DNA of 37,315 nucleotides from Opitutales bacterium (GCA_007132315.1 SLOW01000286.1:1-37315); one strand, 5' to 3'. Shown: positions 1-23,881, numbered from the stretch's first letter. Notes: generated from the sequence alone by a model not told the origin. Translations and numbers: made by a program.

Positions 1-113
1 CGGTTTGTGCGGACCAGCCGGTTGAGAAAGTCCTCGTTCTTTTCCGGGAGCAACTCCGCGAGAGACAGGTTGAAGTACTGATGGCCGGTATTCGGGAAGA
101 CGTGGAGCTTCAT
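1..113 (-). CDS. hypothetical protein, 5' end only (continues past the window edge)
   Basis: ATG at 113 on the minus strand lies 11 nt downstream of the stop of the 984-aa ORF. It reads MKLHVFPNTGHQYFNLSLAELLPEKNEDFLNRLVRTN with no stop before the window edge. No family recognised. Confidence 0.3.
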   Translation of the reverse strand, partial: MKLHVFPNTGHQYFNLSLAELLPEKNEDFLNRLVRTN

Positions 114-124
114 GGGATCGGGCG

Positions 125-3079
125 TTACTGGGTCACGGTCTCCTCGGCGGGCGCGCCGCGCAATTCATGGTATTCGTCGAGTAGTTGCCGAATTTCTGCG
201 TCCCCGGCCTGTTCGGGGCGTTCCCGCCGCTCCACACCGCGCATCGCCAGGCGTTCGACGTGCCCGCCGGATCCTATCAGCGGTTCCAGGAAGTAGCGGT
301 GGGCGGGCATTTCCGAAGCGGAATCCGGCATTTCCGATTTGGGACCTTCTTCGCCGTAGGTGAGCGAGGTTCCCATGCGCACAGCCAACAGGCGCTGCAA
401 TTGAGCCGGGCTGGTTCCGGCGGTGTCGTATTCGAGCCGTTTGCGGAGCCAGGCGGCGATCTCCTCGCAATCGGGGCGATTGGATTCCACCACGGCGCGA
501 AGGAAATCGCGCAGAGCGGAACCCTGATCGAAGAGCATGTTGCGGCATTCCGCCAGCGAGGAGCTGTTCTCCAGCCGGTCCGCCTGTTCGGCCGCCCAGA
601 TGTCGAACTGCCTTTCGATCAGTTGGGCGGTGACGGCCTTCTTCTGGTCCTGGGTCAATCGGGGAAGGTCGGTGGCGCGAACGTTGAAGAGCTCGCGCAG
701 GAAACGATTCAGGCGTTTCATTTCCTTCTCATCCAATCGTTCAACCGCGTCGCGAGCGGCGCTAAGAAAGGCTTCCAATCGTTCCCGGCGGGTGTCGCGC
801 ACCTCGCGTTCCGGCGCCAGTTCCGGCCAGGAAAGGGCTCCGTTGAGGTCTTGGAACGCGGCTTCAATCTGGCGGGCGATACGCTTCAATCGGTTGTCGT
901 CGCGCTCGCTCAGCGCCCGGACCTGTTCTCGCGCGGCGTCGAAGAAAAATTCGGCTCCGCCGGTGAGTATGTCCGTCAGCATGGCGTCGAAGGACTCCCG
1001 GCTGATCTCTTTTTGAAATTGATCCTGGAAAAGCGATTCCGCGGTGAGATTTTTGTGGCGGGTGGAGCCTGGGGAGAAATCGACTTCAATGCGCGCCCGC
1101 GCCCGATCCGGGGAATTGTGGTCGTGGATGGCGAAGGTGGTGGCCACCTGAGGGTCCCGTATGATGCCGAGGTTCTTGACGATCTGATCGATGACTCCGT
1201 AAATATTGGAATCGTTCGGGTTCTTGGCGAAATTGAGTTTATTGGCCCACCACGTGATGACGAGGTTCAGGGGAAACGGACTTTCGCCTTGAGGATTCTG
1301 CAAATAGCCCGGGGCCAGGTGTCGCCACCAGGTGTTGACCCCGTTGATAATCTGGTCGGCGTTGGGGCAGGCGTAGTGGCTGACGCTCTGAAACACGGAA
1401 AAGGCGTCCATGTTGAGTCGCTTGCCATAGGTGGCGACGATAGACGCGGTTTTCCCCCGCTTGAGTATTTCCCGAAAGAACAATAGGGGGGTAAAGCATT
1501 TCTTGACCCGCGCTTTGTCTTCTTCGCTGGCGTCGCCGGACTCCACCCTGCGCTTTAACTCGGCGATCCGCTTTTCATCTATGATGATACGGTTTTCGAG
1601 GGATTTGGTCTCATTCCCGACGCCGGGGAAATCCAGGATGTCGGCGGACTGGAGAAAAGTCTTGAGGGCGTTGGGACGTTCCGTGTCTTCCGGGAACGGC
1701 CGGTTCTGCAAGTGGTCCATATTGATCGGCACGACCAGCTCCCATACCAGACCTTGCAAGAGGCAGAACTCGTCCGGCGTGGTGCCCGCCCGGTGAGGGA
1801 GATCGGAATCGCAACCGATCAGCACGGCGTCATCGTCGACACGATACCCGAGCCGGCCGATCAGATCCTGTATGATGTATTCCGGGGCTTCCGGGTTCGA
1901 GACGTGCTTGCCGTAGGCGATATCGCTGGCCCCCATGTTTAGGAACAGAGCCGCCGCCTCCAGGGAGCAGCGCAGGGGACGATCGGACCATTCGCCGCCC
2001 GGAGCGAGACGTTCGTCGTAATATTCGGCGAAGGCGCGGAACCACTGTGTGATGGCCGGGGCGTCGTTCCACAAAACTTTTTCCGCAAGCCGCCTGACGA
2101 GGTCGCGTGAGGCGAGCAGCGCCGGCTGTTCGAAGAGGCTTCGGAGGTAAGCCTGCCAGGCGTCGCGGTCGGTGGACAATTCGGTGAACACCGGTTCGTC
2201 CGAGGCGGCCAAATCGTCGAGCACCTCGGACAGACGAAGCAACTCGTCGAAAGCTTTTCTGTCCGGCGACCCCAAATGGTTGTCGGCTTTCTTCAGCAGC
2301 TCGTCGGTAACGCGCTGGATGCGCTCCAGGTCCCAGGCCCTCGGTTTGCGGTCGTTGCTGCCGAGACATTCGGTGCTGTATCCGCGTGCGAGTGCGTGCC
2401 ACAAGTCGTCAAGCTGCACCAGGTGGAGTTCGACCGGATAGTGGGGATCGCGCACATGGTGGTATCCCGGTCGCTCCTCCAAGGCTCCCGGAACGAAACG
2501 CGTCAGGCACGCCGAGCCGTCCATGCCCTTGTTGAAGGGATTGAGCACCATTCGTGTCAGATGGGAGGGCGGAGACTGCGGGTCGGCCTGGCGCGGAGCC
2601 ATGAAGAAAAAATGCTTGCCGTCCGGCCAGTGCAGCCCGGAGCCCTCGCCGTCTTTTTCGGGATCTCCGGAAAAGTGGGCGCCCGCGTCCACATAGGCGG
2701 AGACGATCGTGGACTTGCCGGTTTGCGATGGTCCCCAGATTGCCATTGCGGGCCTTGAACGGCGCAGAGCTTCTTCTCCGCGACGAATGTGTTGACGCGA
2801 ATGCGCGACGTCGAGAAGCCACTTCCCCGGAGGCAGGGCATAGGGATCTTTTCTCCGCGAGCCGTGACGCCAAAACCAATCCTCCAAACGTCTTGTGTAA
2901 TCGAGGTATGCCGGGACTTGGTTCATAACTGGAGTTTCCGAGGTTATGACGATGAAGTCCTTCCGCAAGAAGAAAAGTCTTGTCCGAGCGGATTCGTTTA
3001 GAGAATAGTCTCCTGGCGCCGCGTTGTCTGATACTATGGAAACCGTACCAGCAATATTACCGACTCCGGGCCCCGCCAC
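125..3079 (-). CDS. large (984 aa) split P-loop NTPase of unknown family (dynamin/SrfC-like motif pattern)
   Basis: Longest ORF in this region. Walker A is GPSQTGKS (nt 2711-2734). A hhhD-x-P-G motif, ADILDFPGVG (DFPG at nt 1622-1633), lies ~360 aa downstream. The C-terminal third is Arg/Glu/Leu-rich and helical, and no TM segment is seen. An alternative start is ATG 2926 (MNQVPAYLDY). A short gene follows it 11 nt downstream. Confidence 0.75.
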   Translation of the reverse strand: MAGPGVGNIAGTVSIVSDNAAPGDYSLNESARTRLFFLRKDFIVITSETPVMNQVPAYLDYTRRLEDWFWRHGSRRKDPYALPPGKWLLDVAHSRQHIRRGEEALRRSRPAMAIWGPSQTGKSTIVSAYVDAGAHFSGDPEKDGEGSGLHWPDGKHFFFMAPRQADPQSPPSHLTRMVLNPFNKGMDGSACLTRFVPGALEERPGYHHVRDPHYPVELHLVQLDDLWHALARGYSTECLGSNDRKPRAWDLERIQRVTDELLKKADNHLGSPDRKAFDELLRLSEVLDDLAASDEPVFTELSTDRDAWQAYLRSLFEQPALLASRDLVRRLAEKVLWNDAPAITQWFRAFAEYYDERLAPGGEWSDRPLRCSLEAAALFLNMGASDIAYGKHVSNPEAPEYIIQDLIGRLGYRVDDDAVLIGCDSDLPHRAGTTPDEFCLLQGLVWELVVPINMDHLQNRPFPEDTERPNALKTFLQSADILDFPGVGNETKSLENRIIIDEKRIAELKRRVESGDASEEDKARVKKCFTPLLFFREILKRGKTASIVATYGKRLNMDAFSVFQSVSHYACPNADQIINGVNTWWRHLAPGYLQNPQGESPFPLNLVITWWANKLNFAKNPNDSNIYGVIDQIVKNLGIIRDPQVATTFAIHDHNSPDRARARIEVDFSPGSTRHKNLTAESLFQDQFQKEISRESFDAMLTDILTGGAEFFFDAAREQVRALSERDDNRLKRIARQIEAAFQDLNGALSWPELAPEREVRDTRRERLEAFLSAARDAVERLDEKEMKRLNRFLRELFNVRATDLPRLTQDQKKAVTAQLIERQFDIWAAEQADRLENSSSLAECRNMLFDQGSALRDFLRAVVESNRPDCEEIAAWLRKRLEYDTAGTSPAQLQRLLAVRMGTSLTYGEEGPKSEMPDSASEMPAHRYFLEPLIGSGGHVERLAMRGVERRERPEQAGDAEIRQLLDEYHELRGAPAEETVTQ

Positions 3080-3136
3080 CGAACCGAATCCGGTTGTGGC
3101 CTGCCAGCGCCGTGATCGTTTGCGGCTTGCTCATCA

Positions 3137-4744
3137 TTGACCGAATTCCTCTCTATGGCACTATCCGGTGAACAGGAACTTCTTCTCGAGAAACTCGGAT
3201 TGCCGGAGGACGCCGACGCTGAATCCATTGAGAACGCCTACGCCGAACGCCTCGACCGCTATCGCAAGGACGTTGAGGCGGCCGAAAGCAAGCCGGAGCG
3301 TGTCGCCGCGAAGGACGCGTTGAAACGTTTTCAGGCGCTGGAGTCCAAGGTGGAAGAACTGCTCAAGCCGGCGCGAGCCCGCGCCCACATCCAGCAGGCC
3401 TGGCAATTCATCGAGAACGAAGACAAAGGGACCAAGGTCGCGCGTGCGCGGGCGAAAGTTCGGATTGAAGAGGCCCGAAAACTGTTTTCCGACGGCGAAC
3501 TGCCTGAGGAGATCCGTGTGGAAATCGCCGAAATCGAGGCCATCATCGGTCGCGGGGACGCGCCGGAAGCTTCGCCGGCCGTCCCTGAGGAGGCTCCGGT
3601 TGAATCGCAGACCGAGGCGAAAAAGACGCCGAAAATCGCATGGTCGAGTCCGAATCCCATCATCGAAGGGAAGCCTCTGGGGGACGCGCAGTTGAATGCG
3701 ACCGCCGATGTGGAGGGCGATTTCCATTACGACCCGGGTGTCGGGTCTGTATTGGATCCTGGGATACACCGGTTGTCGGTTGTATTCCACCCGGCGGACC
3801 CGGATCGTTTCGAGCGAGCCGCCGCCGCCGTGCAACTGGTCGTCGAGAAAAAGCCGGTGCTTCCGGCCGAGCCCGAGCGCCCTCCCGTACCCGATCCTCC
3901 TCGTGAGTCCAAACCCGAAACCGAACGGCCGAAGGAGTCCGAAGCGCCGCCGGAACCCGATGTGCCGGAGAAGGCGGTGTCGGAGCCGACCGGTGGAAGC
4001 CGGCTCGTCCGGGCGACGGAGGCGCCCGTCGAATCCCGCTCTTCGGAACAATGCGCCCCGCCGCCGGGCCGGGAGGAAATCGAACCCTGTTCCGTCTTCA
4101 CGCTTTTCGACAAGAGCCGGAAGCGGTGTCATGTATTCGGCGCCGACTCCCTGGTCATAGGGAGAAAGCGCACGGACTGCGACATTCTCGCCCGCGTGCG
4201 CGACGCCGGCGATCCGAGGGAGACGGATCGGCTCAATGTGAGAATCAGTCGGAGACACGCGACGTTGGCACGGGACGGAAACAATGTTGTGTTGTTCGAC
4301 GGCTATCGCGATCCTTCGGGTCGCTGCAGCCCCTCATCCAACGGCGTATATCTGAACCGGGAGCGGGTGCACGACCCGGTTTTCCTTCCACATGACGCGC
4401 GCTCCGAAATTCGGGTGGGTCCGGATCGCCGATTTCCCGGCTGGCGCGCGAGTACGGTGCTGACGTGGCCCGTTCACGATCCTCCGGATCGTTTTTCCTG
4501 TGACCGGAGCGAAGGACCGTGCGGTCTTTTTCTGGAACGCCTGGATGATCCGGGTGAGAATATCCTTATAGTCTGGCGCGCCGTCGATCTGCACGCGTTG
4601 GGCATGACCAAGTTTTCATGGTGGCTGGTGCGGCACGAGGACGGATTCATCTACGGAAATGGAAACCTTTGGCATCCCGTCGAGCCCGGTTGCCTCATCG
4701 GCGCCTGGTCCGTTGGATCGTGGAAAGAAGCCGCCTTTATATGA
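3137..4744 (+). CDS. multidomain FHA-domain protein (FhaA-like architecture)
   Basis: The ORF opens at TTG 3137, and the first ATG is 3155 (MALSGEQ). The N-terminus is J-domain-like (LGLPEDADAESIENAYAERL) but lacks HPD. An Ig-like module follows (KIAWSSPNPIIEGKPLGDAQLNATADVEGDFHYDPGVGSVLDPGIHRLSVVFHPADPDRF), then a Pro/Glu-rich linker. The FHA core is VIGRKRTDCDI..RISRRHATLARDG..SSNGVYLN (about nt 4127-4425). A ~100-aa C-terminal tail follows. Confidence 0.8.
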   Translation: MTEFLSMALSGEQELLLEKLGLPEDADAESIENAYAERLDRYRKDVEAAESKPERVAAKDALKRFQALESKVEELLKPARARAHIQQAWQFIENEDKGTKVARARAKVRIEEARKLFSDGELPEEIRVEIAEIEAIIGRGDAPEASPAVPEEAPVESQTEAKKTPKIAWSSPNPIIEGKPLGDAQLNATADVEGDFHYDPGVGSVLDPGIHRLSVVFHPADPDRFERAAAAVQLVVEKKPVLPAEPERPPVPDPPRESKPETERPKESEAPPEPDVPEKAVSEPTGGSRLVRATEAPVESRSSEQCAPPPGREEIEPCSVFTLFDKSRKRCHVFGADSLVIGRKRTDCDILARVRDAGDPRETDRLNVRISRRHATLARDGNNVVLFDGYRDPSGRCSPSSNGVYLNRERVHDPVFLPHDARSEIRVGPDRRFPGWRASTVLTWPVHDPPDRFSCDRSEGPCGLFLERLDDPGENILIVWRAVDLHALGMTKFSWWLVRHEDGFIYGNGNLWHPVEPGCLIGAWSVGSWKEAAFI

Positions 4745-4844
4745 ATTGGAACCACGGCGATGAGAGATGACTTGAAAGGGAAGCGGGGGTACCCGGTCCG
4801 CCCGCTCCGGAGTCCGGAAATCAACCTCAAAAACGAATCACAAG

Positions 4845-6485
4845 ATGACAGAGGATAAAACGAAAACCCTGGTCGAGGAATGCGACGCGGTTTGGGCGGG
4901 GCTGTCCGACACCGGTCCGACGCGGGATCACAACGAAGACGCTCTTGGTGTGGTCTCCCTGGCCGACGTCAAGAAGCTTCGTGATGCCGGAGAGGGCGTG
5001 CTGTCGTGCCGGCCGCCCGGAGCCTTGTTCATGGTGAGCGACGGGGTTGGCGGAGCTTCCGGAGGTGAAATCGCCAGCCGCCTGGCGGTGCGGGCGGTGG
5101 CGGAGAATCTGGGAGTGCTCGTTGACGAGGAAAACGCGGAGCGCAATCCGGACAGAGCGCGGTTGCTCGAAAGATCCATCGTTCTGGCGAATGGCCGCGT
5201 GCGCCAGGAAGCTTCGGCCCGAGAGGGACTCAAAGGCATGGCGGCCACATTCTCGGGGCTGTGGCTGTTACCGGGGAAAGCCTATATCGGACAGGTGGGT
5301 GACAGCCGCATATACCGCTGGCGCGACGGCCGGTTGGAACAACTGACCCACGATCAATCCGAGGTGGGACGCCTGGTGCGTTCGGGCAAACTGACCGAAC
5401 GGGAGGCGCTCGATTTTCCACGCAAGAACGTTATCGATCAGGCCATCGGTTCCAAGCCGGAGGAGTTTGCGCCGCAGACGGACTGGTTCGAGACCTTGCC
5501 GGACGATGTTTTTCTCCTGTGCAGCGACGGGTTGGTGGAAAACTGGGTGACCGGCGACCTCGCCGAACAGATGGAAAACGCTCTCAGCGGGGGCGGATCC
5601 CTGGGGGAAGCCTGCCGCGGGATCGTGGAGGCGTCGAAGGAATCGTCCGGCAAAGACAATATAACGATGCTCGTCGTTCGCGTCGGTTCCGAGTCAGCCG
5701 GCGAGCCGAACAACGCGACGACAGGAGCCGGTCGCCGTCTTCCGTGGCGAGGGCTCGTGGTCGCCCTCGCGGCGGCATTGTTTACGGCGGCGCTCCTCTA
5801 TGCGATTGTCATGGCACCGGCCGAGGCACGCCACCGCGAGGAGTTGAGCGAGTTCGAGGCCCGGCTGGAAGCACAGCGGGAAGCCGTGGCGGGATGGCGG
5901 GTTACGGCGAGATCGCTGGAGGAGGATCTCGACGAGACCAGCGAGCATCACGAACGGCAACGGGAACGGGCGGCGGACTTGGAAGCGGAAATCAGTCTGT
6001 TGCGCCAGGTTAACGAGGAGATGGCTGAATCCCTGGATTCGCTTCGTGACGAGAAAGATCATCTGGAATCGGACCTCGGGGACCGGATCAGGGAAGCGCA
6101 CGCGCGCCTCGCCGAAAGCGAAGCGGAGTTGAACGAGGCGAGGGAGGTGAGCGACAGCCTCCGAATCAACCTGGAGACGATGGAACACGAAATCGAAGCG
6201 CTGGCGGGCCGAATCGAAGAGCTCGAGGAACGAAACGCTATCGACGAAACGTTGATTGAGGCGTTGCTGGCCGACGGCGAGAGCTCGGCGCTATGGGAGG
6301 AAGTCATCCGCGAGCGTCATGCGCCCCGGGTCGCTTCGGAGGACGCCGGTGCGGCGTGGGCTTCCCAGGACGAACGCCTCAACGAAATCGAATCGAGTTT
6401 CCCGGATGAGGAGGGCAGGGTGAGGGTTTTTCGTCGAATCATGGGACCGTCGGAATACGGAGGGGAAGACACCGGTCCCGATTGA
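4845..6485 (+). CDS. PP2C-family Ser/Thr phosphatase with one TM helix and a C-terminal coiled coil
   Basis: PP2C motifs are present: RDHNEDA, FMVSDGVGGASGGEIAS, GQVGDSRIY, LLCSDGL and DNITMLVVRV. A hydrophobic helix LVVALAAALFTAALLYAIVMAP lies at about nt 5750-5820. It is followed by ~200 aa of heptad-like Glu/Leu/Arg-rich sequence. Confidence 0.85.
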   Translation: MTEDKTKTLVEECDAVWAGLSDTGPTRDHNEDALGVVSLADVKKLRDAGEGVLSCRPPGALFMVSDGVGGASGGEIASRLAVRAVAENLGVLVDEENAERNPDRARLLERSIVLANGRVRQEASAREGLKGMAATFSGLWLLPGKAYIGQVGDSRIYRWRDGRLEQLTHDQSEVGRLVRSGKLTEREALDFPRKNVIDQAIGSKPEEFAPQTDWFETLPDDVFLLCSDGLVENWVTGDLAEQMENALSGGGSLGEACRGIVEASKESSGKDNITMLVVRVGSESAGEPNNATTGAGRRLPWRGLVVALAAALFTAALLYAIVMAPAEARHREELSEFEARLEAQREAVAGWRVTARSLEEDLDETSEHHERQRERAADLEAEISLLRQVNEEMAESLDSLRDEKDHLESDLGDRIREAHARLAESEAELNEAREVSDSLRINLETMEHEIEALAGRIEELEERNAIDETLIEALLADGESSALWEEVIRERHAPRVASEDAGAAWASQDERLNEIESSFPDEEGRVRVFRRIMGPSEYGGEDTGPD

Positions 6486-6636
6486 GGGAAAACCTGCTTG
6501 CCCTGTTTTCCGAGTAGGGAAAAACCTGAAAATTCCAACCCGTAAAGATTGATTTTGACCCGGAAAGTATTTCTGGGTAACAAGAGACTACTCTCGGTTC
6601 GTTTCCTCTTTGTATTACACAAATACCGTCCCCTTT

Positions 6637-7686
6637 ATGTCTTCAAATCGAATAAAAAAACTGTTCTTCCCGGTAATTGCGGGCGTGGGGGTTGTTTTAC
6701 TCACGGGTTGCGGGACCACAGCCGACTACAAAGCACTTCAACCCACCGCCGACGGTATGCCGATCCGGGAGGTGGAGATCACTTCCCCGCCCAACGGAGG
6801 TTCCGGGCCCGAAGGAGATCTCGCTTCGGTCTTGCCGTTGAATTCCGACGGCGTGTTCATCGACACGAGAATCAGTATGAGTCCCATCAACGACGAACTT
6901 GTGTTTTCCATGCACACCGGGCGTCGCTCCTACATGAATGTGTACACTTGGAGAAGCGGCAACGGTGAGGACGCGGGCGAGCCGGTGGATGTCACCCGGG
7001 ACATAGACCGGATCAACGTGGAGCCCACGTTCGATCCCCAGGGGGAATTCATCTACTACTCGTCGAACTACCCGGACGCGCGTTACTGGAAATTGTGGCG
7101 GTACGACCTGGTGGACGGCAGCAGGACTCAGATCAGTGACGATGGTTCCACGGCGCGGGTGGATACGAGCCCAACCCTTTCGCCGGACGGACGGCGAATC
7201 GCCTTCGCATCCTACGACCGCGAAGGTGGACAGTCTCGCATTATCGTTGCCGACTCCGACGGGGGCAACGCCGAGCGGAAGGCCACCGGCCACAGCCCGT
7301 CCTGGTCTCCCAACGGGCGTTTAATCGCCTATGTGTCCACCGATCCGGAATCGGAATTGGACCGCATCATGGTGTTGGATCTGGAGTCGGATACCACCCG
7401 CACGTTGACACGTGGAAGCTACCACGACCGCCATCCGGCTTGGACTCCCGACGGCGAGTTGATCGTGTTTTCCACCAATCGCGTGGTGGACGAGGACGGT
7501 TATAGACATTTTTCCATTTGGCAGATGGATGCTTCCGGCAGAAACGCTCGCCCGTTGACATTCAGCACCTACCACGACATGCGTCCGGTGGTGTCCTCGG
7601 ATGGAGACGCCATATTCTTCGTTTCCAATCGCGGCTCCACTGGCGGTGAGGTGCAGGATTGGCGGATTTGGAGAATTAACCGGTGA
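6637..7686 (+). CDS. TolB-like beta-propeller lipoprotein (PD40-type repeats)
   Basis: ATG 6637 gives MSSNRIKKLFFPVIAGVGVVLLTGC with the lipobox LLTG|C. The ORF track opens earlier, at TTG 6610. PD40-like blades repeat through the protein: SPDGRRIAFAS, SWSPNGRLIAYVS, PAWTPDGELIVFSTNR, VVSSDGDAIFFVSNR. Confidence 0.75.
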   Translation: MSSNRIKKLFFPVIAGVGVVLLTGCGTTADYKALQPTADGMPIREVEITSPPNGGSGPEGDLASVLPLNSDGVFIDTRISMSPINDELVFSMHTGRRSYMNVYTWRSGNGEDAGEPVDVTRDIDRINVEPTFDPQGEFIYYSSNYPDARYWKLWRYDLVDGSRTQISDDGSTARVDTSPTLSPDGRRIAFASYDREGGQSRIIVADSDGGNAERKATGHSPSWSPNGRLIAYVSTDPESELDRIMVLDLESDTTRTLTRGSYHDRHPAWTPDGELIVFSTNRVVDEDGYRHFSIWQMDASGRNARPLTFSTYHDMRPVVSSDGDAIFFVSNRGSTGGEVQDWRIWRINR

Positions 7687-7830
7687 TCGGCTTACGCCGG
7701 TTCGGCCGGCACGGCCGACGTGCCATCGCGTTGGGTTTCGGACGTTGTGGGCGATCCCGGAGCTCCGCTGTCGATTGGAACCCCGGGGTTTTTCAGTAAC
7801 CGCAACCACGACTCCCATTTGAGCGACGAC

Positions 7831-10800
7831 ATGAACGGATCTCCTGAAAGTGGCGACGAAGACGAACTGGAGGTGGGGGAGCTTCTTGGGAATTACCGGA
7901 TCGAGCGCCAGCTCGGTCACGGCGGCATGGGGGCGGTGTATCTCGCGCGGCATGACCGGCTCGGGAGAGAGGCGGCCTTGAAGGTTGTCGCTCGCAGTTT
8001 GACCGTCTCGGGAGAGGAGACGTTTCAAAGGAAGTTTCATGAGGAGGGCGGGCTGATGGCCTCGCTCGAACACGAGCATATCGTTCGTGTGTTCGATGCG
8101 GGAGAGTCTCATGGACGTTACTATTTGGCCATGGAGTACCTGGCCGGCGGGGATTTGGAGGAACGAAAGCGCACTTGCGGGGGCAGACTTCCGCCCGCCG
8201 AAGTCGCGGGTTACCTCGAGCAGCTCCTGGACGCCCTGATTTACGCTCACGGCAAGGATATTGTTCACCGCGACCTCAAGCCGGCGAACTTGCTTCTGAG
8301 TGAGAAGGGCACCATCAAGGTGTGCGACTTCGGCCTCGCGCGGGTTGTGGGGGACACGTTTGAACAGTCGGTCATCGAGCGCAGTCATCTCGCTTCCAGG
8401 GTCGGAGACGCCCGGACCCGGTTGGGGTCGGTGGGCACCGGAGACCGCTCGGGAACCCTTTACTACATGGCTCCCGAGGTATTGAAAGGCAATCCCGCCG
8501 ACGCGCGCAGCGACTTGTACGCGGTCGGGGTGATCGCCTATTACCTCCTGACCGGCGACAAGCCGATCGGCGCTTACAAACCGGCGAGTGCGATCGTCAA
8601 GGGTCTGGACCGGGGCTGGGACAAGTGGTTGAACAAAGTGCTGCAATCCGAACCCGACGACCGAACTCCCAGCGCGCGGGATGCCCTGCACGGGTTGTCG
8701 CGGCTTCGCCGCACACTGAGAGGCGTCAAGGCTCCCGCATCCCCCGCGTCGAATGCGTCGAAAGTCGCGGGTTGGTCGGCGGCGGCGGTCGCGACCATGG
8801 TGCTCACATACTTCGTTCTTCCGGAAGAAACCGGTGTGTTTCACGCCGAAATTGAGAATCCCGGATTACAGGACGACGAACGCTTGGAGATTGTGGTGGA
8901 CCGGCGCGAGGGCAGATCCACACCGCGGGTTTTGGGGAACTTGATATCTTTCGGGCCGGGCGAGAAATTGCGGAATCGCTTGAGAAGACCCTTCCCCGAA
9001 CGCGCGGTGTCATCCGCGGATGGCGGGTTGCGGAAGGAGGTACCCGCGGGGACGCGACGGGTGCTGTTGCGGCACCCGTATCATGTGCCTTTGTCCATCG
9101 ACTTGGAGGTGGATTCGCGCGGATTCGTCAGTGAGACTGTTGAACTGGTGCGGGGGACCGGACGCTTGGAGATGCGATTCGCAATGGCCGAATCCGATCT
9201 TGATCTGTTCAAGACGGAGGGCGGCCCGGTCATTCGCGTCAACGGACAGCCCATGGACGGCTGGTGGCGGGAGGAGTCTTTGTTCGTTGATTCCTTTCCG
9301 GCGGGCCGCGGTGAAGTCGAACTCGATCATCCGTTCTTCGAAGTGAAGAGCTTTACGTATGATATCGAAACCTATGAGGTCCAGGTCGCGGATGTGGAAC
9401 CCGCCCGCAGTACCGGATCCGTGAGTCTCGATCTCGACCCGTCCGACACCGGCTGGCGTGTCGAAGATGATCAGGAGGTTGTCGAAGAGGGAACCGGTCC
9501 CGGCCGGATCGACCTTCCGGCCGGTTCTTTTGTTTTTGTTGCAAGCCGCCGGGGCTTTGAGACGCCGCCGCGATCATTCGTTCTGGAGCGCGGGGACGAA
9601 TTGGCGTTTGAAGAGTCACTGTTTGGCGATATCGCCCTGGAATTCGTCAACGAACGCCTTTTGGGGGACGAAAATCTGAATGTCGCGCTCGAAGGATCGT
9701 CGATTGACTATGTTTGGGACGGTCCCACGGTGCGCCTTTCCGAGATACCTGCCGGAGAATGTGAACTGGTCTTGACGCATCCCAACTATGAGACGCGATC
9801 GCTCACCCTGAACGTGTCGGCCGACAGAGAAACGGATTATGCGTTGGAGTTATCCCGGGGCGAAGGGCGCGTCGAAGTGATCACCGTTCCCGAATCGTTG
9901 GAATGGGTTCTGGAGCATGCCGAGGGTGAAGCCGACCGAGTTGTGGGCGCCGGCGACTGGACGGGGAGCCTCCCCACCGGGGAATACGTTCTCGGCGGGG
10001 AACTCGACGGGTACGAGCCTGTGGAGAAAGAGTTAACGGTCAATTTGAACGAAGACCATCCGATCGCCCTGGAAACGGTCCGAAGCAAAGGCGCGATCGA
10101 CATCGCGATAACCAATCTCGAGGCCGGTCACGATGTTCAACAGGTTGATCTTCGCGTCGGTGGACGAGAGCGGGAATGGACTCGCCGGGATGGGTTGTTT
10201 CGAGTGAACGGAGTTGCCGCCGGTGAACACGAAATTTCGGCGGCTCACCCCAGGGTGGGGCAATCCACGGCGATGACCACGGTGGAGCACAACGAAACGG
10301 CATCGGTGGAACTGACCTTGGGTCAGGTAGACCCCGTGATTTTAGAAATGCCTTCATTCTCACTGGAACACGGAGCCTCTGTAGTTGCCGTGGCCTGGGC
10401 TCCGAACGGTGTCCGTTTGGCAACTTGCGGCGCGGATGGGGTGGTTCGCCTTTGGAATGTTGTGAATCGCGAGGAGATTACGCGGATTGACGGACATGTC
10501 GGAAGGGTCACGTCCGCGGCGTTTTCGCCCGATGGAGACAGATTGCTCACCGGGGGCGAAGATGGAACCGTTCGTGTGTGGGATGCCGCATCCGGAGAAT
10601 CGGTCCGCGATCTCGAATGGACCGGCGGCGGAGTGACCTCGGTGGCGTTTTCGCCCGGCACCGAAAACCTCGCGCTGGCGGGTGGCGAACGCGGGATTCT
10701 ACGCCTTTGGCGCGTAGCCGAAGGCGAGGTTCTGCTGGACCTGGAGGGACACGAGGGAGGGATCAACTCGATCGCGTTTTCTCCATGCGGCGAAAAGGCG

Positions 10801-11238
10801 CTCAGTGGCGCTCATGACAGGACGGCCCGGTTGTGGAGGCTGGCCACGGGAGAGGAATCGACTCCCACTTTTGAGCACCGGCGCCTTGGTGTCAACGCGG
10901 TGGCTTTCTCCGCTGATGGAGAGCGAATCCTGACCGGAGTGAATGACAACACCGCCCGGCTTTGGAGGGCGGAGACGCGCGAGGAATTGCGCGTATTTCT
11001 CGGGCACGAGCACAGCGTGCAGTCCGTGGATTTTTCGTCCGAGGGACAGCGGATACTCACAACCGGCGGTTGGGACGGAACCACACGGGTATGGAACGCT
11101 AATATGGGCTGGGAGTTGTATCGTATCAAAACAAACGGACGTTTTTTGTGCGCCGCCTTTTCGCCTGACAGACGGAGTATGGTCGTGACGGGCAACGCCG
11201 ACGGGGAGGCGGCGATTTGGCTCTTGGATGAGCGATGA
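7831..11238 (+). CDS. Hanks-type Ser/Thr protein kinase with TM helix, ~6 PEGA-like repeats and 7 WD40 repeats
   Basis: Kinase motifs are LGHGGMGAVY, AALKV, HRDLKPANLL, DFGLAR and YYMAPE. The TM helix is VAGWSAAAVATMVLTYFVLP (about nt 8764-8823). PEGA-like units repeat, for example GECELVLTHPNYETRSLTLNV and GEYVLGGELDGYEPVEKELTV. Seven WD40 units (..FSPDG..LLTGGEDGTVRVWD..) span about nt 10363-11235. The start is taken at ATG 7831; the ORF track opens at GTG 7720. Confidence 0.85.
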   Translation: MNGSPESGDEDELEVGELLGNYRIERQLGHGGMGAVYLARHDRLGREAALKVVARSLTVSGEETFQRKFHEEGGLMASLEHEHIVRVFDAGESHGRYYLAMEYLAGGDLEERKRTCGGRLPPAEVAGYLEQLLDALIYAHGKDIVHRDLKPANLLLSEKGTIKVCDFGLARVVGDTFEQSVIERSHLASRVGDARTRLGSVGTGDRSGTLYYMAPEVLKGNPADARSDLYAVGVIAYYLLTGDKPIGAYKPASAIVKGLDRGWDKWLNKVLQSEPDDRTPSARDALHGLSRLRRTLRGVKAPASPASNASKVAGWSAAAVATMVLTYFVLPEETGVFHAEIENPGLQDDERLEIVVDRREGRSTPRVLGNLISFGPGEKLRNRLRRPFPERAVSSADGGLRKEVPAGTRRVLLRHPYHVPLSIDLEVDSRGFVSETVELVRGTGRLEMRFAMAESDLDLFKTEGGPVIRVNGQPMDGWWREESLFVDSFPAGRGEVELDHPFFEVKSFTYDIETYEVQVADVEPARSTGSVSLDLDPSDTGWRVEDDQEVVEEGTGPGRIDLPAGSFVFVASRRGFETPPRSFVLERGDELAFEESLFGDIALEFVNERLLGDENLNVALEGSSIDYVWDGPTVRLSEIPAGECELVLTHPNYETRSLTLNVSADRETDYALELSRGEGRVEVITVPESLEWVLEHAEGEADRVVGAGDWTGSLPTGEYVLGGELDGYEPVEKELTVNLNEDHPIALETVRSKGAIDIAITNLEAGHDVQQVDLRVGGREREWTRRDGLFRVNGVAAGEHEISAAHPRVGQSTAMTTVEHNETASVELTLGQVDPVILEMPSFSLEHGASVVAVAWAPNGVRLATCGADGVVRLWNVVNREEITRIDGHVGRVTSAAFSPDGDRLLTGGEDGTVRVWDAASGESVRDLEWTGGGVTSVAFSPGTENLALAGGERGILRLWRVAEGEVLLDLEGHEGGINSIAFSPCGEKALSGAHDRTARLWRLATGEESTPTFEHRRLGVNAVAFSADGERILTGVNDNTARLWRAETREELRVFLGHEHSVQSVDFSSEGQRILTTGGWDGTTRVWNANMGWELYRIKTNGRFLCAAFSPDRRSMVVTGNADGEAAIWLLDER

Positions 11239-11246
11239 GTCGAAAC

Positions 11247-11277
11247 TTGACAATTTCGGATGTGAGCGTGTTAAGAA
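11247..11277 (+). promoter_or_regulatory. sigma70-like promoter candidate upstream of the small FHA gene
   Basis: TTGACA (11247-11252) is followed after 18-19 nt by TTAAGAAT (11271-11278). This is pattern only, and the promoter consensus for this lineage is unknown. Confidence 0.2.
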
Positions 11278-11426
11278 TGTCATACACAAGGTGCCGATAT
11301 CAATCCTCCGGGGATTGTTCGCATCGGAACAGCGTTTCGTGCTCTCGTGACGCTCCCGTCTGTTCGGGACGATTTTATGGATGCTTTCCTCAATAATAAC
11401 GACCACCCTCAACACAAGGCACTATC

Positions 11427-11798
11427 ATGGCAGCTATCATCGTCGGATCCGGTCCGATGGAAGGCGTTTACCTTCCTTTAAGGCATAAAACGGCCATTGT
11501 CGGTCGCGGCGAAGCCGTCGATCTTCAAATCGTTGAAGACAGTATATCCCGAAAACATCTGCGGATACAGTTTGACACGGACGAAGAGCGATATGTCGCG
11601 CTCGATATGGGCAGCCGCAACGGCTCCTGGATCAATGGCCAACCCTTGAAGAACGAAACATTCCTCCAACCCGACGACGAGATTGTGGTTGGAAACACCA
11701 AGTTGCTTTTTTCCGTAACCGTTCCCAAAGACAAAGCCAACGCGCTGGAGATTTACCAAAGCGCCGGTCAGCGCCGGTACAGCACGCGAAGGGTTTAG
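11427..11798 (+). CDS. small single-domain FHA protein
   Basis: 123 aa. FHA signature: IVGRGEAVDLQIVEDSISRKHLRIQFD..YVALDMGSRNGSWINGQPL..DDEIVVGNTKLLF. Confidence 0.85.
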   Translation: MAAIIVGSGPMEGVYLPLRHKTAIVGRGEAVDLQIVEDSISRKHLRIQFDTDEERYVALDMGSRNGSWINGQPLKNETFLQPDDEIVVGNTKLLFSVTVPKDKANALEIYQSAGQRRYSTRRV

Positions 11799-11969
11799 AA
11801 TGGAAAAATCGCGAACGTTGTTGCCAATAGGTCAAATTTTTCAAATGGATCCGGAAAAGGCAACTCACGCTTCCATCGCGAGTTTAGCACACAAGATGCG
11901 TGCACTGCTCTGGAGGCTGAGGCAACACCGTTAGCATCCCGACGGGATGCCAGGCACGAATTAAATACC

Positions 11970-14180
11970 ATGAAAACCATTCTCCCCACCCGCATATTCT
12001 TAGTCCTGTTTGCGTTTATGGTCGTTTTCGCCATGGCCGACAAAGCGCACACAGAGGATTCTTCCGGGGAGCCGAGTGTCATGGATCTGATCCTGGAGCG
12101 TGCCGTGGAGAATACTGCGGTCGAAGTCGATGGTGTTTGGGTGCCGCTGGTCATTGACGAGATCACCTGGAGAGAAGCGTCTCCGGAAGATTGGCAGGAA
12201 AATCTCCGGTCCAGGATCACATACGCCCAAAGACGTTACGAAGAGCTTGCGGAACGCACGGTCGCGCCCGCTCTGGAGAGGCAGTTCCGCGACGTGGCCC
12301 GCCGTTTTGAGGACGCCTGGGAAGCCCAGGACGTGGAGGAGCTCAACCGTCTCTTTCACACCTTTATCGAAGTGCCGACACCCGGATCCCTGCAGGCGAT
12401 CCAGGTGATCACCGATTCCAAACGACGCGGCGCGAACGCTATAATGGAAGCATTCCGGCGCCACGGGCGGGACGCCGAGGCGGATGCCGTTCGTGACGCG
12501 TTGGAGGCGGACAATCTGATCGCGATGGACGGAGCCATGGGGGATAATCTTCTGGCTGTCGGCCGGTTTCACGATCTCGATATCCTGTTTGTCAGCCTTG
12601 ATTCCGGCCCCGCTACGTTCATTGCCGATTTGGAAACGCCGGTTTTGCGCCGCGAATACGAGCTCGCCGAGGGCGAAGAGCGCCTGACGGCGGAACGAAT
12701 GGAACGTGTCGAATTGAGCTACCGCCGATACCGATTGCGGCAACACGAAAGCCGGGAATGGGAGTTCGCTTTCCGGGCCGGCGATTATTCCGTTGAGCGC
12801 GGTGAGTTTCGATCCGCGCTCGAATTGTCTGCCGAGCACGATGGACCGGAGAACGGTGTCGCCGGTGAAACCGCCTGGGAATTCCGCTTCGATGGACCGG
12901 TCTTGGCGACGGGATCCGGTATGGTGACCGATAAATTGAGGTTCGAACGTCCCGGGGAGTACGCGGTGCGCTTCTCGGGCGAAACCGATTGGCAGTCTCC
13001 GTTTTCCGTCTCGACACGGTTTATGCCGCCGGAGATTGTCACAACCTATCGCGGCGATGAGGGCACGAGGTTGACCGAGGAGCGACTCGAGTTTTCCGGT
13101 GAAGGAGACGATCCGTTCCGCGGGCAGACTGATTTGAGCCGGCACTGGCAATTGGAGGTCGAGGTGACCGACTCGGAAGTCGTGAACGGGCAATACCGGG
13201 CCGCCGCACGTCTCGCGGAAACCCGTGGTGACGGATCGGTTGATGCGGACAGTCTCTCCTGGGAAGTGCGATCTCCCGGAGGCGAGGTCCTGGGTGGCGA
13301 TTCCGGTGGAGAGACGCCGATCATGAGCTTTGAAGAGTCCGATTCTTATGCGTTTAAATTCACTGGTTCGACCGATTGGGATTCGCCGTTTGAGATTACG
13401 GAAGACTTGCCGAATCCGGAAATCGTCCCGGTTTATGACGACGAAGAGGGCAGGACGCTGTCCGAGGAAAGGACGGTTTTCTCCGTTCCGGAAGATGAGC
13501 GGCCGTCGGGCCAGGTGGATATCGTGCGCGATTGGGATTTTCAGGCGGAAGTGGTGGAGCACGGCATTAGCAACGGGCGGTTCGGAGTCATTGTGCGTTT
13601 GAACGAACGGAACCGGGAAGGTTCAGGCCTTCGAGGTCATACCCTGGCGTGGGACGCTTATAACCCGGATGGCAGTCTCTTCCAGTCCGGGCAGGGAACC
13701 GAAACCAGCCTCCTGCCCTTTGACGAAGGCGGCGAGTACTCCATCGAGTTTCTTGGCGAAACCGATTGGCGTTTTCCGTTCCGGATTGCGTATTCTCTGC
13801 GGCATCCCAATATAACCCCGTTCTACTCCGGCGACGAAGGCGGGCGCCTGGTGGCGGAAGAGATGTCTTATGGCGGCGGCGACTCCTCGCCCGAGGATCA
13901 GAGGCGCGAATGGGACTTCGACCTGCAATTGCTCAATGAGCGCATCGTCAACGACGAGTATCAGGCAACCGTGCGCCTGACCGAACGCCGACGGGGGCGC
14001 GGCTTTCAAACCACCGGCTGGCGCGTTCTCGGCCGGGGCGACACCGTTTATGATGAAGGAGATTCCGAACAGGCGAATCTGACTTTCACCGACCCGGGCG
14101 AATACCACATCGAATTGTCCGGTATCACCGACTGGGGCTCCCCATTCACGGTCAGAAGTGTTTTTAATATACAGTTTTAG
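11970..14180 (+). CDS. secreted protein with helical N-domain and four tandem ~129-aa repeats (unknown family)
   Basis: Signal peptide MKTILPTRIFLVLFAFMVVFAMA. Four repeats each end in a G-x-TDW-x-(S/F)PF motif: FSGETDWQSPFSV, FTGSTDWDSPFEI, FLGETDWRFPFRI, LSGITDWGSPFTV. Confidence 0.8.
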   Translation: MKTILPTRIFLVLFAFMVVFAMADKAHTEDSSGEPSVMDLILERAVENTAVEVDGVWVPLVIDEITWREASPEDWQENLRSRITYAQRRYEELAERTVAPALERQFRDVARRFEDAWEAQDVEELNRLFHTFIEVPTPGSLQAIQVITDSKRRGANAIMEAFRRHGRDAEADAVRDALEADNLIAMDGAMGDNLLAVGRFHDLDILFVSLDSGPATFIADLETPVLRREYELAEGEERLTAERMERVELSYRRYRLRQHESREWEFAFRAGDYSVERGEFRSALELSAEHDGPENGVAGETAWEFRFDGPVLATGSGMVTDKLRFERPGEYAVRFSGETDWQSPFSVSTRFMPPEIVTTYRGDEGTRLTEERLEFSGEGDDPFRGQTDLSRHWQLEVEVTDSEVVNGQYRAAARLAETRGDGSVDADSLSWEVRSPGGEVLGGDSGGETPIMSFEESDSYAFKFTGSTDWDSPFEITEDLPNPEIVPVYDDEEGRTLSEERTVFSVPEDERPSGQVDIVRDWDFQAEVVEHGISNGRFGVIVRLNERNREGSGLRGHTLAWDAYNPDGSLFQSGQGTETSLLPFDEGGEYSIEFLGETDWRFPFRIAYSLRHPNITPFYSGDEGGRLVAEEMSYGGGDSSPEDQRREWDFDLQLLNERIVNDEYQATVRLTERRRGRGFQTTGWRVLGRGDTVYDEGDSEQANLTFTDPGEYHIELSGITDWGSPFTVRSVFNIQF
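12639..14177 (+). repeat. four tandem protein-level repeats (period ~129 aa, ~387 nt) inside the 736-aa ORF
   Basis: Repeat boundaries fall at about aa 224, 352, 481 and 611. Shared landmarks are P-(E/N)-I-(V/T)-x-x-Y-x-(G/D)-(D/E)-EG-x-x-L-x-(E/A)-E, W-(E/D)-F and GE/GS-TDW-x-(S/F)PF. The repeats have diverged at the DNA level. Confidence 0.75.
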
Positions 14181-14200
14181 CCACAATAAGTTTAGCCTGA

Positions 14201-14576
14201 AGAATCAAGCGCATTGTTGCAGGCATTCGTAAGCGTTTTGAGCGGACCGTTTTGGTGTTCCGCGCCGACAGTCACCACACCAAGCCGCAGGTGATGGATT
14301 GAATGCGGGAAAACAACGTGCAATGGGTGACGGGGCTCGCCGAAGAAGCGCCTAAACAAGAAATGTTGCGATGTAATCGAACAGGCTCAGCAGGCTTATG
14401 AGAAAAACAAGTGCGAGGGCCATGCGGGCGATGAAGTGCGTCACTTCTGCAGTGGTTTCCACGCGGCCGGAACCCGGAGCCGGTCCGAGCGGGTGGTTTG
14501 CCGTGTGATCGCCGGGCCGCTGGGCGTGGACGTGCGCTACATCGTCACGAGCTTCGAGGGCTGCAACGCGAAGTTG
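14201..14576 (+). pseudogene. IS1380-family-like DDE transposase remnant (internal fragment with in-frame stop and frameshift)
   Basis: One frame reads RIKRIVAGIRKRFERTVLVFRADSHHTKPQVMD*MRENNVQWVTGLAEEAPKQEM. A second frame reads VRHFCSGFHAAGTRSRSERVVCRVIAGPLGVDVRYIVTSFEGCNAKL*. Both match my recollection of IS1380 blocks (RADSGF.., SW..RRVV.R.E...G.D.RF.VT). N- and C-terminal parts are missing. Confidence 0.4.
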
Positions 14577-15280
14577 TAGGCGAGGATTTTCTCGTACATT
14601 TCTTCGCTCACCGATTCAATCCCACGTCGTTCCATTCGGTCGAATGCGAAGCTGTGCTTTACTTTGACAATGAACGCGGCGCTTTGGTCGACCACACTGA
14701 GAATACGTTGATGCACCTTCGCCTTAATGCCATTTTCGACACGGTCACCGGCCTGCTTCATTTTGTGTGATGCCATACCAGATCTTCGTCGATTTGATCG
14801 AGAAGGGCCCGGCAGGCCTCCCGTTGAAGTGACGTCAGATCCGTATTGCCGGGAAGCTCGTCAAACGGGCACAAAACTTTCCTGATGAGCCTCTCGAAGG
14901 TCTTACAGGCGCAAACACCCACCCTCCGATAGCCATTGCGGCGCAACCTCAATAACATGCAACCCATTTTTATTATTCCCGGAAAATCGGGAAGCGGCGG
15001 TGACCGCGGCGGCAGGTCCGTGCGACGAATCCATGACATTCGTTGGAATGACGCTCTCGGTTATGGAGCTAGATCGATGTACCTTAGTACTTAGGATTCC
15101 AGCCTGAATGAACACGATGGAAGCGTATTCTTTGGGCTTAACCGAGTAGCATTCGGGGTAGGCCGGTGGGGCGTCGGTCCCACCAATGAGCGTTACCCGC
15201 ACCCGGACGAAATTAACTTGCCGATGGGCGTGGCTTGTTTTAATCCATAAACAGTTGCCATCCTATAACCGCCATTTATC

Positions 15281-18874: not shown

Positions 18875-18877
18875 TGT

Positions 18878-20287: not shown

Positions 20288-20290
20288 GGG

Positions 20291-23392: not shown

Positions 23393-23881
23393 CGACCTCG
23401 GCGGCAATACCGACCGAGCGCCTGATAGGAAATGGCTTGTGGCCCTCCGAGACGTCGGCTCGGAGTTTGAAGCTGCAAGCGGGCTTTTCCCATACCGGAT
23501 ACTGGCATCTCGGGCTTTGAGGGTCAATCCATTCCGCCTTCCGGAATTGTCCTGTCTCTGGCCTCGGCTTCTCAGAACGCCGCGGGAGAATGTCATTGAG
23601 GAGGCGTCGAGGCTTGGGGTCCGCGGGGTGGACATTTTACACCGTCAAATGGAGTGTGATGATTTGACCTATATTCGCGCCCTTGCCCGGATGAAGGAGT
23701 CGCATCTGTTAAGCAGGGAGCGAATCGCTGAACTGAGTGGGCGCCCGAATATTGCCGAAAAAAGCAAAAAACTCTCCGATAATGTCAAAGCAATGGCTTC
23801 TTGAACCTGTTATGCTGGCGGGCATAAGCTTTCGGTTTTCTTAGCTGCTAATAAGCTAACCAATACGTAATTCAATTTCGC

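Follow-up and report, generated by a model that had tools for sequence, protein, structure and literature searches.

On the 37,315-nucleotide contig SLOW01000286.1 of an Opitutales bacterium (GCA_007132315.1), which is analyzed here at its full length and referred to as the window, a gene for a large P-loop NTPase stands head-to-head with six co-oriented genes (positions 125 to 14,180; Table 1). These encode a large FHA protein, a membrane-anchored PP2C phosphatase, a beta-propeller lipoprotein, a membrane-bound Hanks-type Ser/Thr kinase, a small FHA protein and a secreted protein with four repeats. A preliminary description had read the set as a rewired form of the actinobacterial FhaA/FhaB/PstP/PknB cell-envelope cassette and had been unable to place it in any described system. 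Our analysis now shows that the region is the Opitutales version of a named and mechanistically unsolved system, SrfC/SrfB, and that it is neither a new system nor a cell-wall cassette; its gene set is a lineage variant with a different parts list.

Results

The Large NTPase Is a Divergent SrfC of Probable Dynamin-like Architecture

All seven open reading frames (ORFs) previously named in the window are present at the coordinates assigned to them and encode the proposed domains, as judged by Pfam and an ORF check, with four start positions corrected from homologues and gene callers (ATG 2926 for the NTPase, 3155 for the large FHA gene, 6637 for the lipoprotein and 7831 for the kinase). The domain searches that the preliminary description had suggested, for FHA, PP2C, Pkinase, PEGA, WD40 and PD40, each gave a match. 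The P-loop assignment of the NTPase holds as well: the sequence GPSQTGKS and a DFPG motif, corresponding to G1 and to the DxxG element of G3, are invariant across 72 homologues. Its length does not, since the 984 residues first given follow the mechanical ORF up to a GTG at 3079, whereas the start supported by homologues yields a protein of 933 residues.

On its own, the NTPase finds no match in Pfam, NCBIfam, PADLOC or among PDB sequences, and it does not match the SrfC family PF10139 (gathering score 28.1 bits) even at E values up to 1. Its relatives, however, connect it to that family. The 84 full-length homologues all belong to Opitutales or Opitutaceae, and a few of them carry PF10139. 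A profile built from 72 members retrieved 402 clusters at 50% identity from 1.84 billion proteins, and seven of nine distant full-length relatives passed the PF10139 gathering score with 29-61 bits. Moreover, alignment of the 72-sequence profile with hhalign to the SrfC of Klebsiella, a reference that itself scores 1010 bits on PF10139, gave a probability of 96.2% (E = 2e-9) over 345 columns, spanning the shared motifs GxSQxGKS, DLLDFPG and RGK and an NP..G..S/T..TRF element. A hidden Markov model (HMM) of the family likewise matches the SrfC proteins of Klebsiella and Cereibacter at E = 2e-11 and 2e-14, respectively. An AlphaFold2 model built on the family alignment reached a mean confidence (pLDDT) of 90.8. 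In a Foldseek comparison with the PDB, proteins of the dynamin superfamily, among them SynDLP, Campylobacter DLP, IniA, BDLP, MxA, mitofusins and EHD, took more than 20 of the first 30 places. Because of the PF10139-positive relatives, the alignment to Klebsiella SrfC and the dynamin-type matches of the model, we assign the NTPase to SrfC, as a divergent member whose architecture is probably dynamin-like.

SrfB Is Encoded across the Contig Edge

The contig ends shortly beyond srfC, and the ATG of a further gene lies at 113-111 (-), 11 nt past the srfC stop codon. The 37 residues translated from window positions 113-1, MKLHVFPNTGHQYFNLSLAELLPEKNEDFLNRLVRTN, correspond to the N-terminus encoded by the gene next after srfC on a sister contig (L003), whose SrfC is 93% identical to that of the window. 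This L003 gene matches the SrfB family PF07520 at E = 1.2e-64, and the corresponding downstream gene of another locus (L002) does so at E = 4e-67; conversely, an HMM derived from the cluster matches canonical SrfB at E = 7e-89. The gene order in the sister loci is srfC-srfB, often followed by a membrane-anchored coiled-coil protein, and then a bitopic protein of about 900-970 residues with a Big_5 Ig-like domain in its periplasmic part. Across 73 loci, srfB follows srfC in 61, and the Ig-domain protein is found in 51. The SrfB proteins share the invariant motifs DLGNTRT, DIGGGTTD and SGKPSE and show faint matches to MreB, FtsA, EutA and an Hsp70-like chaperone. From these sequence features, we infer that SrfB is an actin/Hsp70-type ATPase.

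A counterpart of SrfA is less evident. None of the cluster families gives a significant match to Klebsiella SrfA. The bitopic Ig-domain protein comes closest (hhalign P = 0.005, probability 7%, 108 columns) and shares its topology with SrfA, a weak signal that we regard as a lead only. Klebsiella SrfA (L073, 5797-7245) is itself bitopic, with about 165 cytoplasmic residues, a transmembrane (TM) segment and a Pro-rich periplasmic part. Apart from this weak match, no accessory family matched any of the proteobacterial accessory genes in HMM or hhalign comparisons, and hhalign detected no likeness to kinases in SrfA, the Ig-domain protein, the coiled-coil protein, the repeat family or the large FHA family.

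Two observations concern kinases at the far end of the cluster. On L003, a second kinase gene (12707-13249) starts directly after the gene for the Ig-domain protein, so that the genome of the window probably has kinases on both sides of its Srf cluster, the second one off the contig. On L001, a 656-residue protein encoded past the Ig-domain protein gene (18555-20525, minus strand) is labeled a kinase by HMM and has no match in its precomputed Pfam record.

FHA Proteins, Kinase, Phosphatase and Lipoprotein

The large FHA protein contains an FHA domain at residues 340-422 of the 535-residue numbering (nt 4154-4402; Pfam E = 2.9e-8), which is its only Pfam match, and it has no predicted TM segment. 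It is built from a helical N-terminus, an Ig-like insert, a Pro/Glu-rich linker, the FHA domain and a conserved C-terminal stretch of about 95 residues within the roughly 110 that follow the FHA domain. The small FHA protein matches FHA (E = 1.8e-15) and Yop-YscD_cpl (E = 1.7e-15), and a similar gene was found in 10 related loci. The translations of both FHA domains retain the GR, SxxH and NG motifs for phosphothreonine binding, and the three motifs are conserved in the large FHA family. The insert of the large protein (window 3629-3850, residues 165-238 of the 535-residue numbering) looks by eye like an Ig-like domain of the 'MBG-type' (KIAWSSPNPIIEGKPLGDAQLNATADVEGDFHYDPGVGSVLDPGIHRLSVVFHP...), a type usually seen in extracellular proteins, whereas the FHA protein is cytoplasmic. 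It has no Pfam match and is not conserved in the alignment of the FHA family, and thus appears to be a lineage-specific insert. A J-domain was considered for the N-terminus of the protein and rejected; the family lacks an HPD motif and is little conserved there.

The kinase (1172-residue numbering) combines a Pkinase domain (E = 5e-49) with a TM segment at residues 349-367 and an ectodomain composed of PEGA (E = 4.4e-8, which is modest and above threshold), a CarboxypepD_reg-like domain (E = 4.7e-12) and a seven-bladed WD40 propeller (E = 5e-57). Its HRDLKPAN, DFG and APE motifs are intact, as are the DGVGG, GDSR and DN.T motifs of the phosphatase, in which the PP2C_2 domain (PF13672, E = 1.6e-16) is followed by a TM segment at residues 304-322 and then by a coiled coil. 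The lipoprotein bears four PD40 repeats (E = 7e-29). The preliminary description had called it TolB-like, a resemblance confined to the propeller: the TolB equivalog TIGR02800, which includes the N-terminal domain of TolB, scores 135 bits against a cut-off of 343 and is matched only in its propeller part. Topology prediction agrees with the further proposal that cytoplasmic FHA readers are combined with a membrane kinase and a membrane phosphatase that both have extracytoplasmic domains. Together with the periplasmic Ig-repeat protein described below, the parts thus span the envelope.

Among ten other srf-linked kinases, eight carry an FGE-sulfatase (SUMF1) domain, often together with PEGA, where the window kinase has WD40. 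Kinases that usually end in this domain are those of L002, L004, L021, L026, L033, L047, L053 and L058; at L047 it occurs together with a 3-keto-disaccharide hydrolase-like domain. A separate gene for an FGE-sulfatase protein stands at the end of proteobacterial srf clusters.

The Four-Repeat Protein Is an Expanded Partner of Srf

The 736-residue protein was correctly recognized as secreted with four repeats. Its signal peptide is followed by an N-terminal domain of roughly 230 residues and then by four repeats of about 125 residues (residues 233-360, 361-489, 490-619 and 620-736; nt 12666-14177), with pairwise identities of 30-37%. Direct searches of Pfam, NCBIfam, PADLOC and PDB sequences gave no match, and word-indexed searches, with the protein alone as well as with a 32-sequence profile, returned only the protein itself and one relative of 78% identity. 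This sister protein (P0224) has four copies of the repeat and the same gene order around it. The wider family, which was recovered by ORF calling and iterated HMMs on fetched loci, has members of about 470 residues whose sole resemblance to the window protein lies in a C-terminal domain of some 120 residues, present as a single copy. A model of one repeat unit, for which the alignment was made up of eight repeats taken from the window protein and P0224, is a seven-stranded beta-sandwich (pLDDT 76.8), whose best structural matches are Ig-like domains of GH2 and GH158 enzymes and PKD domains, at E values of 1.6e-3 or higher. As modeled, the repeat is an Ig-like beta-sandwich, and the protein is predicted to be periplasmic or secreted. 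Rather than a novel repeat protein, as had been proposed, it is a lineage-specific four-fold expansion of a conserved Srf partner.

The Genes Form a Recurrent Unit

For the analysis of linkage, 67 genome loci and five contig loci were fetched, and their ORFs were called and labeled with HMMs iterated from the proteins of the window and of the sister loci. Of these loci, 44 are of the Opitutae type, many of them truncated, and 27 come from other Verrucomicrobiota, Kiritimatiellae and Lentisphaeria. Near srfC, the Opitutae-type loci encode the family of the 736-residue protein in 37 of 44 cases and the large FHA family in 30; a kinase is present in 20, PP2C in 15 and either of the two in 26, followed by the PD40 lipoprotein in 8 and the small FHA protein in 7. 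The commonest arrangement places repeat protein, FHA and PP2C genes, in this order, divergently from srfC, srfB, the coiled-coil gene, the Ig-domain gene and, in some loci, a kinase gene. There are at least four gene orders, and adjacency is retained among them; in a sister genome, the order is identical to that of the window. The 27 non-Opitutae loci keep the core of srfC, srfB and Ig-domain protein and lack the two accessory families, and six of them have a kinase.

A reverse search of metagenomes, based on the repeat-domain motif GxTDWGS[PAV]F and a trimmed alignment of the repeat family, yielded 19 loci. Wherever upstream sequence was available (14 loci), srfC was the divergent neighbor, and in 18 of the 19 the large FHA gene directly followed the repeat-protein gene. 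The linkage therefore holds in both directions and is real: as had been suggested, phospho-signaling genes, NTPase and repeat protein are a recurrent unit. Clusters of the verrucomicrobial type were also seen in records labeled 'uncultured Klebsiella sp.' (L037) and 'uncultured Alphaproteobacteria' (L060), the latter with a different order (Ig-domain protein-srfC-srfB-coiled coil).

Discussion

With gene content, homologies, topology and conserved linkage established as above, we consider the region to be one arm of an Opitutales Srf-type cluster, in which SrfC/SrfB would be gated by phosphorylation; for this account as a whole, we would put the probability at roughly 0.6. The six co-oriented genes comprise two conserved accessory proteins, the large FHA protein and the Ig-repeat protein, and a threonine-phosphorylation module made of the membrane kinase with its PEGA and WD40 domains, the membrane PP2C, the small FHA protein and the PD40 lipoprotein. 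The proposal of a trans-envelope arrangement linked to the NTPase is thus upheld, whereas the actinobacterial analogy and the notion that the set could not be placed are not.

The srfABC clusters of Proteobacteria (Salmonella, Xenorhabdus, Klebsiella plasmids; PF10139, PF07520) share with the Opitutales form homologous, adjacent SrfC and SrfB, a bitopic membrane protein in the operon and envelope-sensor genes that accompany the cluster. They differ from it in gene order, which is srfA-srfB-srfC as opposed to srfC-srfB followed by other genes, and the Opitutales form has no clear SrfA. On Klebsiella and Cereibacter plasmids, the series runs SrfA, SrfB, SrfC, a hypothetical protein, a vWA protein, an ABC ATPase, an ABC permease and SUMF1. 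The Opitutales form is devoid of the vWA, ABC-transporter and stand-alone SUMF1 genes and instead has a Hanks kinase, a membrane PP2C, two FHA proteins, a PD40 lipoprotein and an Ig-repeat protein. Its SrfC is too divergent for Pfam, unlike the proteobacterial one. In Xenorhabdus, SrfA, SrfB and SrfC co-precipitate as a complex, and the operon is cytotoxic and insecticidal upon expression in E. coli (PMC6950479); in Salmonella, the operon is under FlhDC control and srfC mutants swarm poorly while swimming normally (PMC4219756).

The closest regulatory logic is found in the threonine-phosphorylation pathway of type VI secretion (PpkA/TagE, PppA, Fha1/TagH and TagQRST; P. aeruginosa H1-T6SS, Agrobacterium, Serratia). 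This pathway employs the kinase PpkA, the phosphatase PppA and the FHA protein Fha1 alongside the lipoprotein TagQ, TagR (COG1262) and the ABC pair TagS (COG4591) and TagT (COG1136) (PMC13584744). In both systems, a Hanks kinase of the membrane, whose sensor domain is periplasmic, is encoded together with PP2C as its antagonist and with an FHA reader that is a conserved partner of the machine. They also share TagR-type FGE-sulfatase domains, present in related srf loci; COG1262 corresponds to the SUMF1/FGE family. A further parallel is the combination of an outer-membrane-type lipoprotein with a periplasmic protein, both possible co-sensors (PMC13584744; PMC3953482). Unlike in the type VI pathway, the machine is SrfC/SrfB, the kinase ectodomain is composed of PEGA and WD40 rather than vWA, and PP2C is anchored in the membrane and equipped with a coiled coil. 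No type VI core domains were detected in the window or in related loci, and the window contains neither the TagR-type FGE-sulfatase sensor nor the TagS/T pair. Nor do the FHA proteins belong to TagH: TIGR03354 is matched by the small one only, with 30 bits against a cut-off of 120.

An association of Srf genes with this type of signaling has been noticed before. Host-associated Deltaproteobacteria that have no type VI machinery carry srfB and srfC beside ppkA, tagQ, tagR, tagS and tagT, and Campbell et al. (2013), who described them by single-cell genomics, speculated that PpkA controls SrfC or triggers its export (PMC3608642). As in Opitutales, Srf genes are joined there to a signaling set without type VI machinery; the set itself, which according to the paper's description consists of tagQ/R/S/T, ppkA and ligA, differs from PP2C, two FHA proteins, Ig-repeat protein and PD40 lipoprotein and belongs to another phylum and other families. 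The Opitutales combination therefore has a described relative, and its NTPase is the SrfC that heads srfC-srfB.

As modeled, the SrfC protein in turn resembles bacterial dynamin-like proteins (BDLP, DynA, IniA, LeoA, Campylobacter DLP1/2 and SynDLP) in having a large N-terminal P-loop domain with DxxG and a long helical stalk. It differs from them in that no solved structure is matched by sequence, the template modeling (TM) score is about 0.2 and G4 is not evident, and in that its partner is an actin/Hsp70-like ATPase instead of a second dynamin.

How might phosphorylation control SrfC and SrfB? We envision that the kinase ectodomain senses a cue in the envelope, perhaps aided by the lipoprotein and the Ig-repeat protein, and that the kinase would then phosphorylate a threonine either on a cytoplasmic Srf component or in the linker of the FHA protein. 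Binding of the large FHA protein to this phosphothreonine might recruit or activate SrfC/SrfB at the inner membrane, and PP2C would eventually reset the switch. Such a scheme would amount to the PpkA/PppA/Fha1/TagQRST gating of type VI secretion, applied to another machine. By analogy with bacterial dynamins, SrfC may bind and remodel membranes in a nucleotide-dependent manner, and the most likely output would be remodeling of the membrane or the envelope by a dynamin-like motor.

Several points weigh against this account. The SrfC of the window itself stays below the Pfam threshold of PF10139. The Foldseek matches of its model are weak, with a best E value of 3e-4 and TM-scores as above, and a canonical G4 motif, (N/T)KxD, is not seen in the NTPase, where a nearly invariant N522 (PNADQ) lies after the next strand. 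The fold assigned to SrfB comes from motifs only, its profile finding just non-significant FtsA and MreB matches among PDB sequences (E about 0.5). Kinase and PP2C are missing from many loci, in part on account of truncated contigs, and the kinase is rare outside Opitutae (6 of 27); the linkage counts describe the fetched loci. Gaps of 100-188 bp separate the six co-oriented genes, a putative operon that is thus not tightly packed, and a scan for consensus promoters and terminators found nothing above chance, including in the intergenic region 2927-3154. Given that the window kinase has WD40 where its relatives have FGE-sulfatase, its input may differ from theirs. Finally, the target of phosphorylation, the direction of control and the output are inferred.

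Some of these points would also be expected if kinase, PP2C and small FHA protein were a general-purpose module that happens to lie beside the Srf cluster, with membership in the cluster confined to the large FHA protein and the repeat protein. Verrucomicrobiota encode many Hanks kinases, kinase or PP2C occur in only 26 of the 44 Opitutae-type and 6 of the 27 other loci, and the wide intergenic gaps fit as well. We nevertheless hold this to be unlikely: kinase and PP2C directly adjoin cluster genes in at least four gene orders and recur from Opitutales to Verrucomicrobiaceae (L047, L053, L058), the linked kinases usually share the FGE-sulfatase ectodomain, for which proteobacterial srf clusters have a gene of its own, and in the window the module sits between the two conserved accessory genes. 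Somewhat less probable still is that SrfC and SrfB are secreted toxins or effectors, the 'SrfABC toxin', whose export is triggered by the phosphorylation module. The idea draws on the cytotoxic and insecticidal activity of Xenorhabdus SrfABC in E. coli (PMC6950479) and on the proposed PpkA-triggered export of SrfC (PMC3608642), but it has to contend with the lack of a predicted signal peptide or TM segment in SrfC and SrfB and of secretion-system genes in the window and related loci, with carriers that are, by their record names, free-living environmental Opitutales, and with predicted folds of mechanochemical NTPases rather than toxins.

A role in defense, whereby the membrane would be safeguarded by a dynamin-like protein together with a kinase in phage infection or other conflicts, ranks lower again in our estimation. 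A link to phage resistance has been drawn for DynA, a dynamin of bacteria, and the kinase domain matches the PADLOC kinase models mad6 and PD-T4-6 at E = 1e-50 to 1e-66. These matches are generic for Hanks kinases, however, and SrfC, SrfB, the Ig-domain protein, the FHA proteins, the repeat family and canonical SrfA, SrfB and SrfC give no PADLOC match beyond coiled-coil noise; the cluster also lies amid housekeeping sugar-metabolism genes, with no signs of mobile elements around it. Least credible of all is the interpretation with which the locus was first described, a verrucomicrobial counterpart of the actinobacterial cell-wall cassette fhaA-fhaB-pstP-rodA-pbpA-pknA-pknB with the NTPase and envelope proteins in place of RodA and PbpA. 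Two FHA proteins, a membrane PP2C and a membrane Hanks kinase do stand in one gene string in both, and the best NCBIfam names are FhaB, Stp1 and PknB. All that is held in common is generic domains, though, and membership tests largely refute the idea: the three equivalogs remain far below their cut-offs (FhaB NF049868, 55.6 against 125 bits; Stp1/IreP NF033484, 171.9 against 230; PknB_PASTA NF033483, 208 against 450), Pfam finds neither the N-terminal DUF3662 domain of FhaA nor PASTA in the window proteins, rodA and pbpA occur nowhere in the window, and the large FHA protein has a C-terminal extension and belongs to a family that travels with srfC and not with cell-wall genes.

A phosphorylation-gated SrfC/SrfB cluster bears on a question of long standing, as SrfABC proteins have been labeled virulence factors for more than 20 years and still lack a mechanism. 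A conserved SrfC/SrfB core is seen at this locus and at about 90 related ones. It has the look of a dynamin-type motor with an actin/Hsp70-type ATPase as its partner, is surrounded by proteins of the membrane and the periplasm, and is repeatedly coupled to Ser/Thr phospho-signaling in free-living Verrucomicrobiota without a host. This pattern argues for a function in the cell envelope under post-translational control rather than for a toxin. It could be studied by way of the FHA reader dedicated to the cluster, the pair of kinase and PP2C, and carriers available in culture, for instance Pelagicoccus sp. NFK12 (GCA_014803405.1, locus L002). While the window is a lineage variant, the wider pattern would be of consequence were Srf clusters confirmed to be phosphorylation-gated, dynamin/actin-like envelope machines whose sensing follows the logic of type VI secretion. 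It is conceivable, albeit distinctly speculative, that Srf clusters are a phylum-spanning, phosphorylation-gated envelope machine, composed of a dynamin-like SrfC and an actin/Hsp70-like SrfB, which shares its input module with type VI secretion. The module would then consist of kinase, PP2C, FHA protein, an FGE-sulfatase/TagR-type sensor and lipoprotein, and would respond to envelope damage. A corollary is that the labels 'virulence factor' and 'toxin' would be misnomers, and that the Opitutales version, with its WD40 kinase, membrane PP2C and amplified Ig-repeat protein, would be a membrane repair or remodeling device of free-living cells.

Layout of the Window and Neighboring Genes

Table 1. 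Features at the left end of the window, with positions counted from its first nucleotide
Feature	Position	Strand	Basis
srfB homologue, 5' end (37 codons)	1..113	-	Translation compared with the L003 gene; truncated by the contig end
SrfC-family large NTPase, dynamin superfamily type, 933 aa	125..2926	-	Homologues, profile alignment, model
Divergent intergenic region between srfC and FHA gene, 228 bp	2927..3154	.	Start coordinates
Large cytoplasmic FHA protein, 529 aa (535 aa from TTG 3137)	3155..4744	+	Pfam FHA; family kept near srfC
PP2C phosphatase (aa 17-280), one TM segment, extracytoplasmic coiled coil of about 220 aa	4845..6485	+	PF13672; TM prediction
PD40 beta-propeller lipoprotein, 349 aa (358-aa ORF)	6637..7686	+	PD40; lipobox LLTGC
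Hanks-type Ser/Thr kinase, one TM segment, PEGA/CarboxypepD_reg-like beta-sandwiches, WD40, 1135 aa (1172 aa from GTG 7720)	7831..11238	+	Pfam
Small stand-alone FHA protein, 123 aa	11427..11798	+	Pfam FHA
Secreted/periplasmic four-repeat Ig-like protein, 736 aa	11970..14180	+	Signal peptide; repeat alignment; family near srfC

Rfam and tRNA scans of the window gave no matches. The four-repeat gene is followed by 1.1 kb (14181-15280) without an ORF of at least 100 residues, in which only fragments of 42-99 residues are found on both strands and the G+C content is somewhat lower, at about 0.55; this stretch may be the remnant of a gene or an extended regulatory region. Otherwise, the window from 14 to 37 kb encodes sugar-metabolism enzymes, RapZ and a nucleoside symporter and is unrelated to the cassette. 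The RapZ homologue and an adjoining 648-residue protein are listed as a pair at 22517-23635 (-) and 20291-22237 (-). The former has an N-terminal extension of about 86 residues ahead of its RapZ domain, and the latter is a fusion of a glucosamine-6-phosphate isomerase/6-phosphogluconolactonase-like domain to a PIG-L deacetylase domain.

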